Source of the DNA: Saprospiraceae bacterium
Lineage (GTDB): Bacteria > Bacteroidota > Bacteroidia > Chitinophagales > Saprospiraceae
Direction: 5' to 3'
DNA length: 63,263 nucleotides
Assembly (NCBI GenBank): GCA_043721685.1
Contig: JAYSQG010000007.1
Location: 1-63,263 of the forward strand
Shown: piece after piece, positions 45,403 through 55,886 of the stretch
Layout: each line of letters starts with the position of its first letter
How positions within the stretch are numbered: position 1 is the stretch's first letter
Notes under the pieces: model-generated
Databases searched by the model: none
Told to the model about the DNA's origin: nothing
Seen by the model: only the letters and a program-made list of their open reading frames with translations
Made by a program: the position numbers and the translations under genes

Positions 45403-45831
45403 TCACTTAACCCGATACCAGGTTTGTGTTCTGTAAAAGGGTCCTATCCAGCCACGTACTTTCAATTCGTTGCTATTGCCATTTTCAAACCACATGCTGC
45501 ACGTGTATTCTTTACCTTTTTCAGGGTCGAGGATTTTACCACCTTTCCAAGTTGAGCCACTGGCATACATATCGCGTACAATCATCATTTGCATGACTTT
45601 TTGTCCTTTTCGCCAGTCTGTACATTTATCACATACGCGATTTGGGTCGGTGTCTTTTCGCAAAAAAGCAATGACTTTGCCGTACATTTTGCCATTTTCT
45701 TGATATAATTGGACATTGGATTTGGCTTCGCCCGTTTCGTCGTCAATAGATTTCCAAACGCCGATTGGCGATTGAGCTTGTAATCCTAAAAAGAGGCAGG
45801 CGAACACGCCAAGCAATAAGAACTTCTTCAT
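45403..45831 (-). CDS. DUF2147 domain-containing protein
   Basis: 142 aa with a signal peptide. It has the GVWKSIDDETGE ... CDKC ... GGKILDPEKGKEY pattern. Confidence 0.8.
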   Translation of the reverse strand: MKKFLLLGVFACLFLGLQAQSPIGVWKSIDDETGEAKSNVQLYQENGKMYGKVIAFLRKDTDPNRVCDKCTDWRKGQKVMQMMIVRDMYASGSTWKGGKILDPEKGKEYTCSMWFENGNSNELKVRGWIGPFYRTQTWYRVK

Positions 45832-46030
45832 TCTGTAATTGATTTGTTTTTAATGAGTAAATTGATTTTATAGTTAGAAATCGAACAAAAAAACGGTAAA
45901 TCTTTTTAAAAACAGACTATTTTACTTTTTTTATGAAAAAAATAACAAAAATACCCCCCTCAGTAAAAAGGCACTTACAACGCCTTAAATGCCTTCTTTT
46001 TCTAAAAAATTAAAAAAAAACAAAATGAAA

Positions 46031-46062
46031 TTTGGTCACATCGAGAAAACGGCATACGTTTG
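46031..46062 (+). promoter_or_regulatory. Bacteroidota-type promoter of the aromatic amino-acid operon leader
   Basis: -33 TTTG at 46031-46034, a 20-nt spacer, then -7 TACGTTTG at 46055-46062. Confidence 0.55.
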
Positions 46063-46085
46063 CACCCAATAAAATCAATCAGACA

Positions 46086-46175
46086 ATGACGCGCCCTTTC
46101 GCAAATACATTTAGCTTTTTTTATTTTTACTTTTACACTACCAGTAAGAGGAGCTACTTATTTGCGCGGCGATAA
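46086..46175 (+). CDS. Phe/Tyr-rich leader peptide (29 codons)
   Basis: Translation is MTRPFANTFSFFYFYFYTTSKRSYLFARR*, with 7 Phe and 4 Tyr including the run FSFFYFYFY. It lies between the promoter and an intrinsic terminator, upstream of pheA. Confidence 0.6.
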   Translation: MTRPFANTFSFFYFYFYTTSKRSYLFARR

Positions 46176-46201
46176 AAAATATACGCTTAAAAGATGCAAA
46201 A

Positions 46202-46237
46202 AGGAGTTCCTCAACGGGGACTCCTTTTTTTGTTTTT
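46202..46237 (+). terminator. attenuator terminator
   Basis: A 9-bp stem (aggagttcc / ggggactcct, with one G-U pair) followed by TTTTTTTGTTTTT, 27 nt after the leader stop. Confidence 0.65.
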
Positions 46238-46248
46238 GTGCGAATACT

Positions 46249-46281
46249 ATGTTCGGGGAACTTTCAAAGTTCCCCGAACAT
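46249..46281. promoter_or_regulatory. perfect 16-1-16 palindrome (operator- or RNA-hairpin-like)
   Basis: Reads atgttcggggaacttt-c-aaagttccccgaacat, between the attenuator terminator and pheA. Confidence 0.5.
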
Positions 46282-46359
46282 GAAGCAAATCAAACATCAG
46301 AAAAAAAAATAGCGTAAACCATTGATTATCAAACAGTATTCAAAAGAATCGTCAACAAC

Positions 46360-47265
46360 ATGGACTTGGATTATCAAGAAATAAAAGACAAAGAGCTTGT
46401 CGCACAAAGCAATGGACAAGCCACAAAATTGCTGAAAGTTGCCATTCAAGGCGTAGAGGGTGCTTTCCACGAAATAGCGGCAAGGCGTTTTCATAATGCA
46501 GCCGATATAGATGTCGTGCCAGCCGACACCTTCGATATTTTGATTCAGCAAGTGGAATCAGGCGAAGCAGATTCAGCAGTTATGGCGATTGAAAATACAA
46601 TTGCAGGGAGTTTGTTGCGAAATTATAATCTTTTGAATAACAGTAAGTTACGTATTCGAGGCGAAGTTTTTTTAAGGATAAAACAAAACCTAATGGCTTT
46701 GCCAGGCATCCAAATCAAAGACCTCAAAGAAGTTCACAGCCACCCCATCGCCTTGCAACAATGCGAAGAATTTTTTGATAAATATCCGCATATCCGTCTT
46801 GTAGAAGCCCATGATACGGCTTTGGTTGCCAAAGAAATTAGAGAAAAAGGTCTGAAAAAAATTGGCGCAGTCGGCTCTGTTTTGGCAGCCGAAATTTATA
46901 ATTTGAACATCCTTGCACCGAGTATTGAGACCTATAAAAAGAATTTCACTCGTTTTTTATACATCACAAAGGAAAATCATGAGGAGTCTATTATGCCCGA
47001 TTTCGATAAAGTTTCCCTTGTTTTTTCTACGAATCATACGGTTGGTAGCCTTTACAAAGCCCTTGAAGTCTTGTCGCGCAACAATTGTAATTTAACAAAA
47101 ATTCAATCTGCGCCCATTATGGATAAGCCGTGGGAGTATATGTTTTTCTTAGATTTTACATTGGGTACTTATTCTAATTATCCACAAGCGATGTTGGAAT
47201 TGCATCGTGTTGTAGGTGAGATTAAAGTGTTGGGTGAATACAGAAGCGGTGAATATTTCGAGTAG
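46360..47265 (+). CDS. pheA: prephenate dehydratase (PDT plus ACT domains)
   Basis: 301 aa with IQGVEGAFHE, AIENTIAGS and a C-terminal ACT with a TKIQSAP-type motif. Confidence 0.9.
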   Translation: MDLDYQEIKDKELVAQSNGQATKLLKVAIQGVEGAFHEIAARRFHNAADIDVVPADTFDILIQQVESGEADSAVMAIENTIAGSLLRNYNLLNNSKLRIRGEVFLRIKQNLMALPGIQIKDLKEVHSHPIALQQCEEFFDKYPHIRLVEAHDTALVAKEIREKGLKKIGAVGSVLAAEIYNLNILAPSIETYKKNFTRFLYITKENHEESIMPDFDKVSLVFSTNHTVGSLYKALEVLSRNNCNLTKIQSAPIMDKPWEYMFFLDFTLGTYSNYPQAMLELHRVVGEIKVLGEYRSGEYFE

Positions 47266-47298
47266 TTTTATTTTTAAAATATTGAATACCAATTAATT

Positions 47299-48477
47299 AT
47301 GAGCATTAAAGTTGCGAGTCGTTTAGATTCCATTCACGAATATTATTTTTCAAAAAAGCTAAAAGAAATTGCTGATTTGAATGCAGCAGGTAAAAACGTG
47401 CTGAATCTCGGTATTGGTTCGCCCGATTTGCCCCCCTCAGTACCAGCGATTGAAAAACTCGTCGAAACGGCTCGATTGCCGACAAGTCATGCCTATCAAG
47501 GTTATGTGGGCGTTTTGGCTTTGCGTGAAGCGATGTCTGTTTTTTACAAAAAACACTACGACGTTTCGCTCAATCCCGTGAATGAAATATTGCCTTTGTT
47601 GGGTTCAAAAGAAGGCATTATGCACATCTGTATGACCTATTTGGAGACAGGCGACGAAGCATTATTGCCCAATCCAGGCTATCCAACCTACCGTGCAGCC
47701 GTCACTTTGGCAGGTGCAAAATGTGTGGATTACAACTTGACAGAAACAAACGGTTGGTTGCCCGACCTTGAAAAATTGGCGAAACAGGACTTGTCAAAAG
47801 TCAAATTGATGTTCGTCAATTATCCGCACATGCCGACAGGCGCACAAGGCACAAAAGCCTTTTTTGAAGAACTCGTGGCTTTCGCAAAACAGCATAATAT
47901 ATTGGTTATCAATGATAATCCGTATAGTTTTATTTTGAATGACCACCCCCTCAGTATTTTGTCGGTTGATGGCGCAAAAGACATTGTATTAGAATTAAAT
48001 TCGCTATCAAAAAGCCATAATATGGCAGGTTGGCGTGTGGGTCTATTGGCAGGCAAAGCCGAATTTTTAAACGATGTTTTGCGTTTCAAATCGAATATGG
48101 ATTCGGGTATGTTCCTACCTGTTCAAATTGCCGCTATCGAAGCCTTGAAAGCGGATAAGGAATGGTATTTAGATTTGAATGATGAATATCGTCGTCGTCA
48201 GCAAAAGGTATTTGTGCTGTTAAGTTTGTTGGGTTGCACTTTCGATGAACGTCAAACGGGTATGTTCGTTTGGGCAAAAATACCCCCTCAGTACAAGACA
48301 GGTTTTGAGCTGTCAGATGAGATTTTGCATGGTGCAAATGTCTTTATAACGCCTGGTGGCATTTTTGGGAATCAAGGCGATGGGTATATTCGGTCGTCGT
48401 TGTGTGCGCGGGAGTCGGTTTTTGAGGAGGCGATTGAGCGAGTAAAAGTGTTTCATAAACAATTGATTGTCAAATAA
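47299..48477 (+). CDS. class I/II pyridoxal-phosphate aminotransferase
   Basis: 392 aa with NPGYPTY, and a NSLSKSHNMAGWRVG PLP-lysine block. Its position in the operon suggests an aromatic or prephenate aminotransferase. Confidence 0.85.
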   Translation: MSIKVASRLDSIHEYYFSKKLKEIADLNAAGKNVLNLGIGSPDLPPSVPAIEKLVETARLPTSHAYQGYVGVLALREAMSVFYKKHYDVSLNPVNEILPLLGSKEGIMHICMTYLETGDEALLPNPGYPTYRAAVTLAGAKCVDYNLTETNGWLPDLEKLAKQDLSKVKLMFVNYPHMPTGAQGTKAFFEELVAFAKQHNILVINDNPYSFILNDHPLSILSVDGAKDIVLELNSLSKSHNMAGWRVGLLAGKAEFLNDVLRFKSNMDSGMFLPVQIAAIEALKADKEWYLDLNDEYRRRQQKVFVLLSLLGCTFDERQTGMFVWAKIPPQYKTGFELSDEILHGANVFITPGGIFGNQGDGYIRSSLCARESVFEEAIERVKVFHKQLIVK

Positions 48478-48483
48478 TAAAGT

Positions 48484-49323
48484 ATGATAGTTAGTATAGT
48501 CGGTATTGGTCTCATCGGCGGTTCAATCGCAATTGGTCTCTACGAATCGGGTTTTGCAACCGAAATAATTGGTGTCGAAGCATCAGCAGAACATGCTCAA
48601 AAAGCATTGGATTTAGGTTTGGTTAACCGCATTTTACCACTTGACGAAGCGATTGCAGCGAGCGATATTGTCATCGTCGCAACGCCTGTGAACAGTTTGA
48701 CGACTTTGCTGCCGCATATTTTGGACAAAGTGGATAAGCAAATTGTGATGGATGTCGGTTCTACGAAAGTCAATATCATGGAAGCGGTACGGTCGCACCC
48801 AAAACGTGCCAATTTTATTGCGACACACCCGATGGCAGGAACGGAATTTTCAGGACCACAAGCCGCTGTGCAGAAGTTGTTTGAAGATAAAGTGTGTGTT
48901 TTGTGCGATATTGAACAAAGCAGTGAAGAAGCACGCAATACAGCAGAAGCAATGTATAAGTCGTTGAAAATGAACACACTGTATATGAACGCAGAAAGCC
49001 ATGACGTGCATACGGCTTATGTGAGTCATATTTCACACATATCGAGTTTCGCTTTGGCTTTAACCGTTTTGGAAAAGGAGCACGACGAAAATGCCATTTT
49101 CAACTTAGCAAGCGGTGGTTTTCGCTCATCTGTGCGTTTGGCAAAATCGAATCCAGAGACATGGATTCCGATTTTTGAACAAAACCGCGACAATGTTTTG
49201 GACGTTTTGGACGAGCACATACATATATTGAGTACGATGCGGTCGCATTTGATAAAACGCCGTTTTACTGATTTTTACGCCATGATTGAAAAGGCGAATG
49301 ATATTAAGCGGATTTTGAAGTGA
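48484..49323 (+). CDS. tyrA: prephenate dehydrogenase
   Basis: 279 aa with the Rossmann start IVGIGLIGGS and the HPMAGTE active-site block. Confidence 0.88.
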   Translation: MIVSIVGIGLIGGSIAIGLYESGFATEIIGVEASAEHAQKALDLGLVNRILPLDEAIAASDIVIVATPVNSLTTLLPHILDKVDKQIVMDVGSTKVNIMEAVRSHPKRANFIATHPMAGTEFSGPQAAVQKLFEDKVCVLCDIEQSSEEARNTAEAMYKSLKMNTLYMNAESHDVHTAYVSHISHISSFALALTVLEKEHDENAIFNLASGGFRSSVRLAKSNPETWIPIFEQNRDNVLDVLDEHIHILSTMRSHLIKRRFTDFYAMIEKANDIKRILK

Positions 49324-49325
49324 GA

Positions 49326-49356
49326 TACTGTCCGAATGGACTCCTTCGGTGAGGGG
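49326..49356 (+). repeat. TACTGAGGGG motif split by a 19-nt imperfect palindrome
   Basis: Reads TACTG-tccgaatggactccttcgg-TGAGGGG and begins 3 nt after the tyrA stop. Confidence 0.85.
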
Positions 49357-49538
49357 ACGTTGGCAATCGGATTTTTGGAAAAATTGGATTTTCAAAAGAA
49401 GGGGAATATGCCTAAATTGCGAGCCTTTTTAAACAAAAATAAGGGAAAATAAAGCATTTATACAAAGGGGTTAAAACGAAGCAATAACAATTTTTAAAAT
49501 ATAGCAATCAGTTTTTTATCAAAAAAAAGAAAAAAATC

Positions 49539-50645
49539 ATGGATTTAAAACCTTTTTTAGAAGTACAGACAAAACGCCCGTTCCTCATCGCAGGACCTTG
49601 TTCGGCAGAGACCGAAGGGCAAGTTATGAGTATCGCACGCGATTTGGCGGCACAAGGCAATGTTGACCTTTTCCGCAGTGGCATCTGGAAACCGCGTACA
49701 CGTCCGGGTATGTTTGAAGGCGTAGGCAGCGAAGGCTTGAAATGGCTTAAACGCGTCAAAGAAGAGACAGGTTTGCGCACGACGGTGGAAGTTGCGAATG
49801 CACACCACGTCTATGAAGCCTTGAAATTTGGCGTTGACGTATTGTGGATTGGCGCACGGACGACGGTAAACCCGTTTTCAGTGCAGGAAATCGCTGATGC
49901 TTTGCGTGGCGTTGACATTCCTGTGATGATTAAAAACCCAATTAATCCCGATTTGGAATTGTGGTTGGGTGCTTTTGAACGCTTGAACAAAGTGGGTATT
50001 ACACGTATGGCAGCGATTCACCGTGGCTTTTCATCGGCTGCAAAAACGCAGTACCGCAATGTGCCACATTGGGACATTGCGATTGAATTGATGCGTCGTT
50101 TGCCCAATTTGCCTGTTATTGGCGACAATTCACACATTTGTGGCAACCGTCACATGTTGGCAGAAGTGGCGCAAGAAATGATGGATTTGAACTTTGATGG
50201 TTTGATTACAGAAGTTCACTGCAATCCTGACGAAGCGTGGTCTGATGCTAAACAGCAAATCACACCACCTGTTTATAAAGAATTGATTGATAATTTGGTG
50301 TTGCGTGCAGAAAAAGACGCGGGTTTCTTGAACTCAATCGAGTCTTTGCGTGTACGTATTGACGAAGTAGATAACGAATTGTTGACTTTGCTTGGTAAAC
50401 GTATGCAGTTTGCAGAAGAGATTGGAGATTACAAAAAGCGTAATAGTATTGCTATATTACAAACCAGCCGTTGGAACGAGATTTTGAATTCAGCTGTTCA
50501 AAAAGGTCGTCAACAGGGTTTGAGCGATGAGTTTGTTATTCAGTTGTTGACAGCGATTCACCAGGAGTCTATTCGTCACCAAACTTTGGTGATGAATGCA
50601 CATGATGAAAAAGTAGCTGAAACATCTTTGGCAACAGCGAAGTAA
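49539..50645 (+). CDS. bifunctional 3-deoxy-7-phosphoheptulonate synthase (KDO8PS-like class I-beta) / chorismate mutase
   Basis: 368 aa. The N-terminal DAHPS has GPCSAE and KPRT motifs. The C-terminal ~90 aa form an AroQ-type CM (RIDEVDNELLTLLGKR...). Confidence 0.88.
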   Translation: MDLKPFLEVQTKRPFLIAGPCSAETEGQVMSIARDLAAQGNVDLFRSGIWKPRTRPGMFEGVGSEGLKWLKRVKEETGLRTTVEVANAHHVYEALKFGVDVLWIGARTTVNPFSVQEIADALRGVDIPVMIKNPINPDLELWLGAFERLNKVGITRMAAIHRGFSSAAKTQYRNVPHWDIAIELMRRLPNLPVIGDNSHICGNRHMLAEVAQEMMDLNFDGLITEVHCNPDEAWSDAKQQITPPVYKELIDNLVLRAEKDAGFLNSIESLRVRIDEVDNELLTLLGKRMQFAEEIGDYKKRNSIAILQTSRWNEILNSAVQKGRQQGLSDEFVIQLLTAIHQESIRHQTLVMNAHDEKVAETSLATAK

Positions 50646-54821: not shown

Positions 54822-55790
54822 ATGTTTCAGTCAATTTGGGATGATGTCAAACGGGAGTTTCAATATGGCAATATGGTCACACGGATTATAGTTGTCAATA
54901 TTGCTATATGGATTGTTGTCAACATTGCTAAACTCATCTTGCGTATTCCGACCGAAGATGCGGCTATGTATGATGATTTTCTGCGTTTTTTTTCAATGTC
55001 GCCGAATTGGATGTTTATATTAATGCACCCTTGGGTGCTCATAACGTCAATTTTTTTACATGAAAGTTTTGGGCATATCCTTTGGAATATGTTGACTTTC
55101 TACTGGTTTGGGCGTATTGTCGGCGATTTATTGGGCAATCATCGGGTCTTGCCGCTGTATTTACTCGGCGGTTTAGCTGGTGGGGCGGTCTATTTTATTG
55201 CTGCACAATTTCATGTATTGGGTTTGGGTTTACCGAGCGAAATGGTTCTAGGTGCATCGGCAGCTGTGATGGCGATGGTCGCCTGTGCGGCTTATATTGC
55301 TCCTGATTATATATTTAACTTATTACTTATCGGGCCTGTTAGGTTGAAATATATTGCCTTTGTTTTGTTTTTTCTCGACCTCATCAGCATTGCAGATAGG
55401 TCAAATACTGGGGGGCATTTAGCGCATTTGGGCGGTGCGGCTTTCGGTTTGTTTTTTGCGGCGCAACTACGAGAAGGTACAGATTTGGGCAAGCCGATTA
55501 ATCGCTTCATTGATTTTTTAATTAATTTGTTTAATAGTCGGCCAAAGTCAAAGTTTACTTATCAACGTGGCGGTGGTGGACAAAAAGCCTATTCAGGTCA
55601 GCAGAAATCACAGCCCAAAAAGACTACACAAGGTAGTCAAACCTCCGATTTAGCTAAAAAAACAACTGATGCCGGTGTTTCCGACGAGCAGGCACGCCTC
55701 GATGCGATTCTCGATAAAATCAAACAAGATGGTTATGACAGTTTAACCAAAGAAGAAAAAGAATTCCTTTTCAAAGCCAGTCAAAAATAA
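54822..55790 (+). CDS. rhomboid family intramembrane serine protease with a basic C-terminal tail
   Basis: 322 aa with HESFGHILWNM, GASAAVMA and AHLGGAAFG. Confidence 0.85.
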   Translation: MFQSIWDDVKREFQYGNMVTRIIVVNIAIWIVVNIAKLILRIPTEDAAMYDDFLRFFSMSPNWMFILMHPWVLITSIFLHESFGHILWNMLTFYWFGRIVGDLLGNHRVLPLYLLGGLAGGAVYFIAAQFHVLGLGLPSEMVLGASAAVMAMVACAAYIAPDYIFNLLLIGPVRLKYIAFVLFFLDLISIADRSNTGGHLAHLGGAAFGLFFAAQLREGTDLGKPINRFIDFLINLFNSRPKSKFTYQRGGGGQKAYSGQQKSQPKKTTQGSQTSDLAKKTTDAGVSDEQARLDAILDKIKQDGYDSLTKEEKEFLFKASQK

Positions 55791-55886
55791 AAGGCAATTT
55801 GCAAAAGGCAAAAGAGACGTAACGATTATTGAAGTTTGCTTTTTGTCTTTTGTTTCTTGCTGTTTGTAAATTACAAATTGCCTTTT
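55789..55886. repeat. inverted repeat / word-rich hairpin after the second rhomboid gene
   Basis: aaaaggcaatttg (55789-55801) pairs with caaattgcctttt (55874-55886). The interior is rich in caaaagg/cttttg words. Confidence 0.5.

Follow-up and report, generated by a model that had tools for sequence, protein, structure and literature searches.

A probable leader-peptide attenuator with mixed Phe and Tyr control codons upstream of the pheA operon in a Saprospiraceae bacterium

Background

In Escherichia coli, the pheA gene is preceded by pheL, a short ORF rich in codons for the end product of the pathway (Rfam RF01859, Phe_leader; PMC3082878). The pheL peptide has about 15 codons with a run of Phe codons only, and the leader RNA is divided into four regions that form the pairings 1:2, 2:3 and 3:4 and an intrinsic terminator.

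Leader-peptide attenuation has also been recognised among the Bacteroidota. A 170-nt 5' segment upstream of pheA in Flavobacterium psychrophilum was annotated in 2021 as a leader-peptide attenuation element (PMC9723704, Table S7). This leader has a mapped start, appears as a separate 5' segment with read-through under specific conditions and gives no Rfam hit, and expression of the pheA operon is maximal in minimal media (PMC9723704). The element is located upstream of a pheA-aminotransferase operon, its ORF is rich in F, Y and W (MNTNNTFYSNNSFYFYWNIGRDCYMVI), and it ends in a terminator hairpin with a U-run (PMC9723704). By our own reading of the published sequence, GGGATTGT, the segment that follows the run, and ACAATCCC, the terminator's 5' arm, are complementary. 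Gurvich et al. noted that 'Bacteriodes' potentially use a pheL gene (PMC3082878), and in a transcriptome study of B. thetaiotaomicron the only mention is of small ORFs that recall leader peptides (PMC7366714). The Bacteroid-trp leader motif of Rfam is a Bacteroidetes tryptophan leader that was found in silico (cited in PMC9723704). A keyword search of the literature yielded nothing further on such leaders, and older attenuator surveys may list Bacteroidetes cases.

Some attenuators are multivalent. The leaders of the E. coli thr operon (Thr and Ile codons) and ilvGMEDA operon (Leu, Val and Ile codons) are examples in which a shortage of any one of the amino acids causes de-attenuation of an operon with several end products.

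The element described below is a Saprospiraceae case of a kind already recognised in the Bacteroidota, and it is an ordinary example of a textbook mechanism. What is added here is an explicit antiterminator, its covariation, the phylum-wide spread of the element and the finding that Phe and Tyr codons consistently occur together.

Organization of the locus

The window analysed is a stretch of 63,263 nucleotides from a Saprospiraceae bacterium (GenBank assembly GCA_043721685.1, contig JAYSQG010000007.1, positions 1 to 63,263, forward strand). The upstream neighbour of pheA is a divergent gene of the DUF2147 family, so the whole element lies within a 528-nt intergenic region. Its parts are as follows.

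46031-46062, plus strand: Bacteroidota-type promoter, read from the sequence
46086-46175, plus strand: leader ORF of 29 codons plus stop, MTRPFANTFSFFYFYFYTTSKRSYLFARR, from its translation and from the leaders of relatives
46092-46125, plus strand: region 1, the 5' arm of the 1:2 hairpin, which overlaps the first control codons
46110-46136, plus strand: control run of codons 9-17 (F S F F Y F Y F Y), where the ribosome is proposed to stall
46143-46171, plus strand: region 2, with two alternative partners: region 1, or region 3 via 46148-46166 (antiterminator)
46195-46212, plus strand: region 3, shared by the terminator (as its 5' arm) and the antiterminator (as its 3' arm)
46216-46240, plus strand: region 4, consisting of a 3' arm (46216-46229) and U-tract (46225-46231 and 46233-46237), which forms an intrinsic terminator with region 3

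A sequence-only reading of this stretch had proposed a promoter of the form TTTG-N20-TACGTTTG, and these boxes are indeed present: a -33 TTTG (46031-46034) is separated by a 20-nt spacer from the -7 box TACGTTTG (46055-46062), 23 nt upstream of the leader ORF. Transcription is expected to start a few nucleotides past the -7 box, at approximately 46068-46071. Both boxes are invariant in nine close relatives, and the spacer differs in one locus (L005). In the wider set of loci introduced below, 46 of 61 cases have TTG-N18-20-TAnnTTTG no more than 100 nt ahead of the leader ATG, where 0.3 would be expected.

The leader ORF begins with the ATG at 46086 and ends with the TAA at 46173-46175. Its translation agrees with the earlier description of a 29-codon ORF with 11 aromatic residues, as 11 of the codons specify F or Y, and eight of the nine consecutive codons of the control run are aromatic. 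Among 11,109 other ATG mini-ORFs (795 kb, both strands), only five reach at least seven aromatic residues in eight codons. Three of these five are second leaders before pheA in other loci, which leaves two unrelated examples in about 11,100.

The terminator hairpin spans 46198-46229 and has 9 bp, or 14 bp if an A:U extension is included, with a predicted energy of -18.5 kcal/mol. It is followed by UUUUUUUGUUUUU, in which the U-tract takes the form U7-G-U5. The G/C-rich core begins 27 nt past the leader stop codon, and the U-tract region ends at 46240, whereas the pheA ATG is at 46360. Thus, the 9-bp GC-rich hairpin that had been placed 27 nt past the stop and about 120 nt upstream of pheA is found at both of these distances.

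Pfam matches establish the gene order pheA, aminotransferase, tyrA and DAHPS/CM that the sequence-only reading had assigned to the downstream operon.

46360-50645, plus strand: operon presumed to be regulated, from Pfam matches
46360-47265, plus strand: pheA (prephenate dehydratase with ACT domain), Pfam
47299-48477, plus strand: class I/II aminotransferase, Pfam
48484-49323, plus strand: tyrA, or prephenate dehydrogenase, Pfam
49539-50645, plus strand: fused DAHP synthase-chorismate mutase, Pfam

The order pheA, aminotransferase, (tyrA), DAHPS/CM recurs in related loci. No terminator or leader ORF was seen in the 215-nt noncoding gap between tyrA and the DAHPS/CM gene (49324-49538). A search for other leader-peptide attenuators in the window yielded no convincing candidate, and a mini-ORF encoding FFFFF (55743-55811, minus strand) was set aside as it lies antisense inside a gene.

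Comparison with described leaders

The window element fits the layout of the F. psychrophilum-type pheA leader, with an F/Y-rich ORF, a terminator, a promoter of the TAnnTTTG type and a pheA-aminotransferase operon. However, the two come from different orders (Flavobacteriales versus Saprospiraceae), their peptide and stem sequences differ, and the F. psychrophilum element is backed by transcripts (PMC9723704), whereas the element in the window is known from sequence alone.

With E. coli pheL-pheA, the element shares a short ORF rich in end-product codons upstream of pheA, and a four-region RNA with an intrinsic terminator. In contrast to the Phe-only run and shorter peptide of pheL, the run here alternates Phe and Tyr (with Trp in some relatives) in a peptide of 29 codons. 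The operon has four genes and also serves the synthesis of Tyr and of common precursors, and the promoter is of the Bacteroidota type without a Shine-Dalgarno sequence. Homology to enterobacterial pheL was considered and rejected. The match to Phe_leader reaches 27.1 bits (E = 0.024, 600 nt) against a gathering score of 55, and it is driven by composition because the opposite strand scores 22.2 bits. We therefore regard the element as an analogue of enterobacterial pheL and not as a demonstrable homologue.

Bacteroid-trp is likewise a predicted leader-peptide attenuator in the same phylum associated with an operon for another aromatic amino acid. That motif, however, carries Trp codons and lies upstream of trpE, and it is absent among the leader-region matches up to E = 10. 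The thr and ilvGMEDA leaders also mix codons for several amino acids within one peptide, but they are proteobacterial, concern other amino acids and operons, and have no sequence relation to the window element.

Three mutually exclusive pairings

The sequence-only reading had found no convincing antiterminator by eye and had recommended alternative-structure prediction. Such folding yields three mutually exclusive pairings, 1:2, 2:3 and 3:4, and reveals an antiterminator formed by 46148-46166 with 46195-46212.

The 1:2 hairpin is the minimum-energy fold of the leader. It is composed of helices 46092-46095:46168-46171, 46100-46107:46159-46166 and 46112-46125:46143-46156, and its 5' arm takes in codons 9-14. 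The 2:3 antiterminator is composed of helices 46148-46155:46205-46212 (GAGGAGCU with AGUUCCUC), 46157-46159:46202-46204 (CUU with AGG) and 46161-46166:46195-46200 (UUUGCG with UGCAAA). As isolated structures, 1:2 (summed over its helices), 2:3 and 3:4 have energies of -24.5, -22.7 and -18.5 kcal/mol, respectively. Compared with dinucleotide shuffles, the 155-nt leader has a folding z-score of -5.2 and the 291-nt region one of -8.4.

Several constrained folds bear on how these pairings might compete. The 2:3 pairing is the best fold of an RNA that stops short of region 4 and whose F/Y run is masked in imitation of a stalled ribosome. When region 1 is removed and region 4 is present, the antiterminator is the minimum-energy fold at -24.8 kcal/mol, compared with -24.3 kcal/mol for the forced terminator, and with the last five U nucleotides still inside the polymerase the values are -24.8 and -20.6 kcal/mol. 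If the mask is confined to the first nucleotides of region 2, the terminator becomes the preferred fold (-23.2 versus -12.2 kcal/mol). The switch is visible only in these truncated and segment folds. The equilibrium fold of the full-length RNA with the ribosome mask on the run still predicts the terminator, which counts against a switch, and this persistence is due to A-tract:U-tract pairs that extend the hairpin. Given this result, and given that the antiterminator and terminator are nearly iso-energetic with region 1 removed, any switch must be kinetic.

The leader stop codon is located 7 nt past the segment of region 2 that enters the antiterminator (46148-46166). With this placement, the 3' half of region 2 would lie under a ribosome that terminates there, and region 1 could re-pair behind it.

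Distribution and covariation of the leader RNA

A PheA protein scan with one genome retained per species gave 80 loci. The closest relatives are Saprospiraceae metagenome-assembled genomes (MAGs) with 86-96% identity, and the other loci come from Bacteroidales, Flavobacteriales and one Chlorobi-like genome. A leader was accepted if an ATG mini-ORF just upstream of pheA carried at least five aromatic residues in eight codons. By this measure, ATG leaders are present in 62 sequences, namely the window and 61 loci, and in approximately 10 further loci the ORF for the same peptide begins with GTG. An F/Y-rich leader is thus found at about 72 of 79 assessable pheA loci in Saprospiraceae, Bacteroidales and Flavobacteriales. 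Eight pheA loci are without a leader, and two further loci were too short to judge. Loci from Tenacibaculum and Lutibacter (L033, L060 and L069), like those from Bacteroidales and Saprospiraceae, show the layout of the F. psychrophilum element, in which an F/Y-rich ORF and a terminator lie between a TAnnTTTG-type promoter and a pheA-aminotransferase operon. Flavobacterium johnsoniae and Bacteroides thetaiotaomicron have this element too.

A terminator candidate lies behind all 62 leaders examined, and it starts approximately 95 to 131 nt from the leader start codon in nearly all of them. RNAalifold recovers the terminator from 59 leaders, with compensatory changes in nine of its nine pairs. 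The 59-sequence MAFFT alignment slips in register by one column between Bacteroidales and Saprospiraceae, and this barred a single consensus for the 2:3 pairing. For this reason we relied on a MAFFT alignment of 22 Saprospiraceae-type leaders, which was not fitted to any structure, and on an alignment-free comparison of own and foreign duplexes.

In the 22-sequence alignment, the 3:4 helix is 92.9% paired and has compensatory changes in eight of 14 pairs. The core of the 2:3 helix (46148-46159 with 46202-46212) is paired in 90.4% of cells, with compensatory changes in eight of 11 pairs, including GGAGCU/AGUUCC, GGGGCU/AGUCCC and GAAACU/AGUUUC. Only zero or one of 500 shuffles matched the values observed for this core, and the corresponding slid controls were 45-60% paired (42-77% across the 2:3 and 3:4 tests). 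The outer 2:3 helix (46161-46166 with 46195-46200) is supported only in the window's own clade.

The alignment-free comparison set each terminator 5' arm against its own region 2 and against the equivalent segments of leaders that have a different terminator. Pairing to the arm's own region 2 is more favourable by about 8 kcal/mol, and in 47 of 61 loci no more than 5% of the foreign segments reach the same value. In the window, the own duplex has -21.0 kcal/mol, and the foreign duplexes have a mean of -8.9 and a best value of -12.6 kcal/mol. Median shuffle z-scores across loci are -3.1 for 2:3 and -2.7 for 1:2. Support for 1:2 is given as a per-sequence z-score because indels in region 1 make the MAFFT register inconsistent there. 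The antiterminator therefore covaries with the arm of the terminator, and the alignment of relatives' leaders that the sequence-only reading had called for reveals compensatory changes in both stems.

These observations also bear on the possibility that the leader ORF acts mainly through translation-dependent polarity, that is, through Rho-dependent termination, mRNA stability or translational coupling. Nothing was found that points directly to such a mode of action. Every leader is followed by a conserved, canonical intrinsic terminator with a U-tract, and an action through Rho or mRNA stability would not need the terminator to covary with an upstream mimic of its 3' arm. We consider this explanation very improbable.

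Evidence that the leader ORF is translated

The sequence-only reading had staked its case on the conservation of the mini-ORF in relatives, and the ORF, its frame and its F/Y run are kept across three Bacteroidota orders. The core of the control run, TTTTTACTTTTAC, is near-invariant phylum-wide. All 61 analysed leaders contain both amino acids (at least three F and at least two Y), with a median of six F and four Y per 20 codons. Peptide length ranges from 15 to 32 aa, and positions outside the F/Y run, which correspond to the hairpin loop, vary both between and within clades.

This conservation must be weighed against a different reading, in which the hairpin and U-tract are controlled by a protein or tRNA (in the manner of T-box, TRAP or PyrR systems) or by a riboswitch, and the F/Y-rich ORF is an incidental by-product of a U-rich, structured RNA. 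The near-invariant core UUUUUACUUUUAC is also part of the 1:2 stem, so some of its conservation may be structural and not coding, and conservation of nucleotides alone is no proof of translation. However, in lineages of higher GC content the in-frame codons remain aromatic even though the nucleotides are quite different (FYYYYY and YGFGYYFLY are examples), which argues that the ORF is translated. The start codon, frame and stop-free ORF are maintained in approximately 72 loci, Trp codons occur within the run of 18 of the 61 leaders, and the stop codon is always situated where a terminating ribosome would cover region 2. Furthermore, neither the window nor six diverse loci give a match at the gathering threshold of any Rfam family, and no riboswitch or T-box appears in the list of E-values for 45800-46400. 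We consider control of this kind very improbable as well, and favour ribosome-mediated attenuation.

With regard to codon choice, three of the four leader Tyr codons are UAC (for example at 46134-46136), whereas the surrounding genes favour UAU (54 UAU versus 16 UAC), and the UUUUAC repeat of the leader is near-invariant across orders. The cause may be base pairing with GUAAAAG in region 2, or else an influence of the individual codon on how fast it is decoded.

Variation in start codons and promoter spacing was also observed. About 10 Bacteroidales leaders apparently start with GTG (KVNNSVFAFSFWFYFYFSR, where V is the start), among them L034, L039, L041, L042, L048, L049, L053, L054 and L062. 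At four other loci (L027, L043, L061 and L065), a mere 8-11 nt separate the end of the TAnnTTTG box from the leader ATG, so the leader ORF may there be read from an mRNA that is leaderless or nearly so.

The region between the terminator and pheA

Two further features of the window are located downstream of the terminator.

46249-46281: perfect palindrome of 33 nt (ATGTTCGGGGAACTTTCAAAGTTCCCCGAACAT) in the stretch from the terminator to pheA, outside the attenuator core
46313-46333, plus strand: block CGTAAACCATTGATTATCAAA, invariant in nine close relatives, ending 26 nt upstream of the pheA ATG

The palindrome was considered as a second hairpin of the switch and rejected, because it represents a dispersed palindromic element whose insertion here is lineage-specific. 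Only the window and its closest relative (L002) carry it, and seven close relatives lack it. Within the window it is single-copy. Its core, with the outer pairs ACG..CGT in place of ATG..CAT, recurs in three unrelated metagenome contexts (L081/L082, L083/L085 and L084), in one of which a T-run follows. It looks like a small dispersed element of the REP or MITE type. At another locus, L013, an inverted repeat of about 70 nt, GGGATTATGAGATTAGAGATT...AATCTCTAATCTCATAATC, is found at approximately 420-500 directly after the attenuator terminator, and small palindromic elements may insert preferentially at this post-terminator position.

The invariant block contains the palindrome TTGAYNRTCAA (46322-46332), which ends 27 nt before the pheA ATG. 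There are 11 such sites in the window, where 0.5 would be expected. The others are at 2962, 13420, 20260, 23028, 25311, 27853, 29077, 48463, 50855 and 56035, and one copy ends 10 nt before the tyrA ATG. Saprospiraceae loci contain 35 sites in 200 kb, compared with 1.2 expected, and Bacteroidales only one in 467 kb. The motif is thus over-represented approximately 20- to 30-fold in Saprospiraceae DNA and not in Bacteroidales, and it may be the binding site of a lineage-specific DNA-binding protein.

In some Bacteroidales, a second F/Y-rich mini-ORF, for example MKTNERFFFYYFFYF..., lies between the first terminator and pheA (L026, 4760-4852; L046, 4840-4947; L057, 4851-4949). These arrangements look like putative tandem attenuators in series.

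That the small ORF instead encodes a functional hydrophobic micro-protein with its own terminator, and that pheA is served by a promoter in the 120-nt spacer, is the least probable explanation of all: the spacer (85-130 nt in the clade) does hold the invariant block, but peptide length and all positions outside the F/Y run vary, the terminator lies only 8-35 nt from pheA in many loci and so leaves no room for a separate promoter, no TAnnTTTG box could be read in the spacer, and a covarying antiterminator would be without a role.

Proposed mechanism

On the basis of the conserved ORF, terminator, promoter and antiterminator, which support the claim of the sequence-only reading that this is an architecture for ribosome-mediated attenuation with mixed Phe and Tyr codons, we judge that the element is very probably an attenuator that senses charged tRNA-Phe and tRNA-Tyr together. 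A ribosome would translate the leader ORF as RNA polymerase proceeds. If Phe and Tyr are plentiful, the ribosome would pass the F/Y run, reach the stop codon at 46173-46175 and cover the 3' half of region 2. Region 1 would then re-pair with region 2 behind the ribosome, region 3 would pair with region 4, and termination near 46231-46240 would release a leader RNA of approximately 165 nt. If either Phe or Tyr is short, the ribosome would stall within 46110-46136, where it would hold region 1 and free region 2. Region 2 could then pair with region 3 once the latter is made, which would block the terminator and allow the polymerase to read into pheA, the aminotransferase gene, tyrA and the DAHPS/CM gene.

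Most likely, the leader limits expression of the Phe/Tyr-synthesis operon to conditions in which these amino acids are in short supply. That translation is coupled to transcription here, and that the cell responds in this way, is inferred. To our knowledge, initiation in the Bacteroidota is not led by Shine-Dalgarno sequences and transcription-translation coupling has not been established in this phylum. A response to Phe and Tyr supply would be consistent with the transcriptome data for the equivalent F. psychrophilum element, which support it indirectly.

Significance

For a Saprospiraceae bacterium, these results provide a complete and testable wiring diagram for the control of Phe and Tyr synthesis, with a promoter, a sensor ORF and three competing helices at exact coordinates, and the diagram extends to most Bacteroidota, including the gut Bacteroidales. 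The current understanding of attenuation is not overturned by these findings. As the element is absent from Rfam, the present alignments could seed a family and thereby improve the annotation of thousands of genomes. Moreover, because the mechanism needs a ribosome close behind RNA polymerase, these leaders are natural reporters of transcription-translation coupling.

Two more far-reaching readings are, taken together, unlikely. The leader RNA or its peptide could act in trans, for which the Sinorhizobium trp attenuator RNA rnTrpL and the peptide peTrpL offer a precedent. Such a role may involve the abundant terminated leader RNA or its F/Y-rich product. The milder and more likely of the two is that the leaders constitute one ancient, phylum-wide family of combined Phe and Tyr (sometimes also Trp) sensors that is so far missing from Rfam. 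If this were true, it would mean that transcription and translation are tightly coupled in a phylum that does without Shine-Dalgarno pairing.
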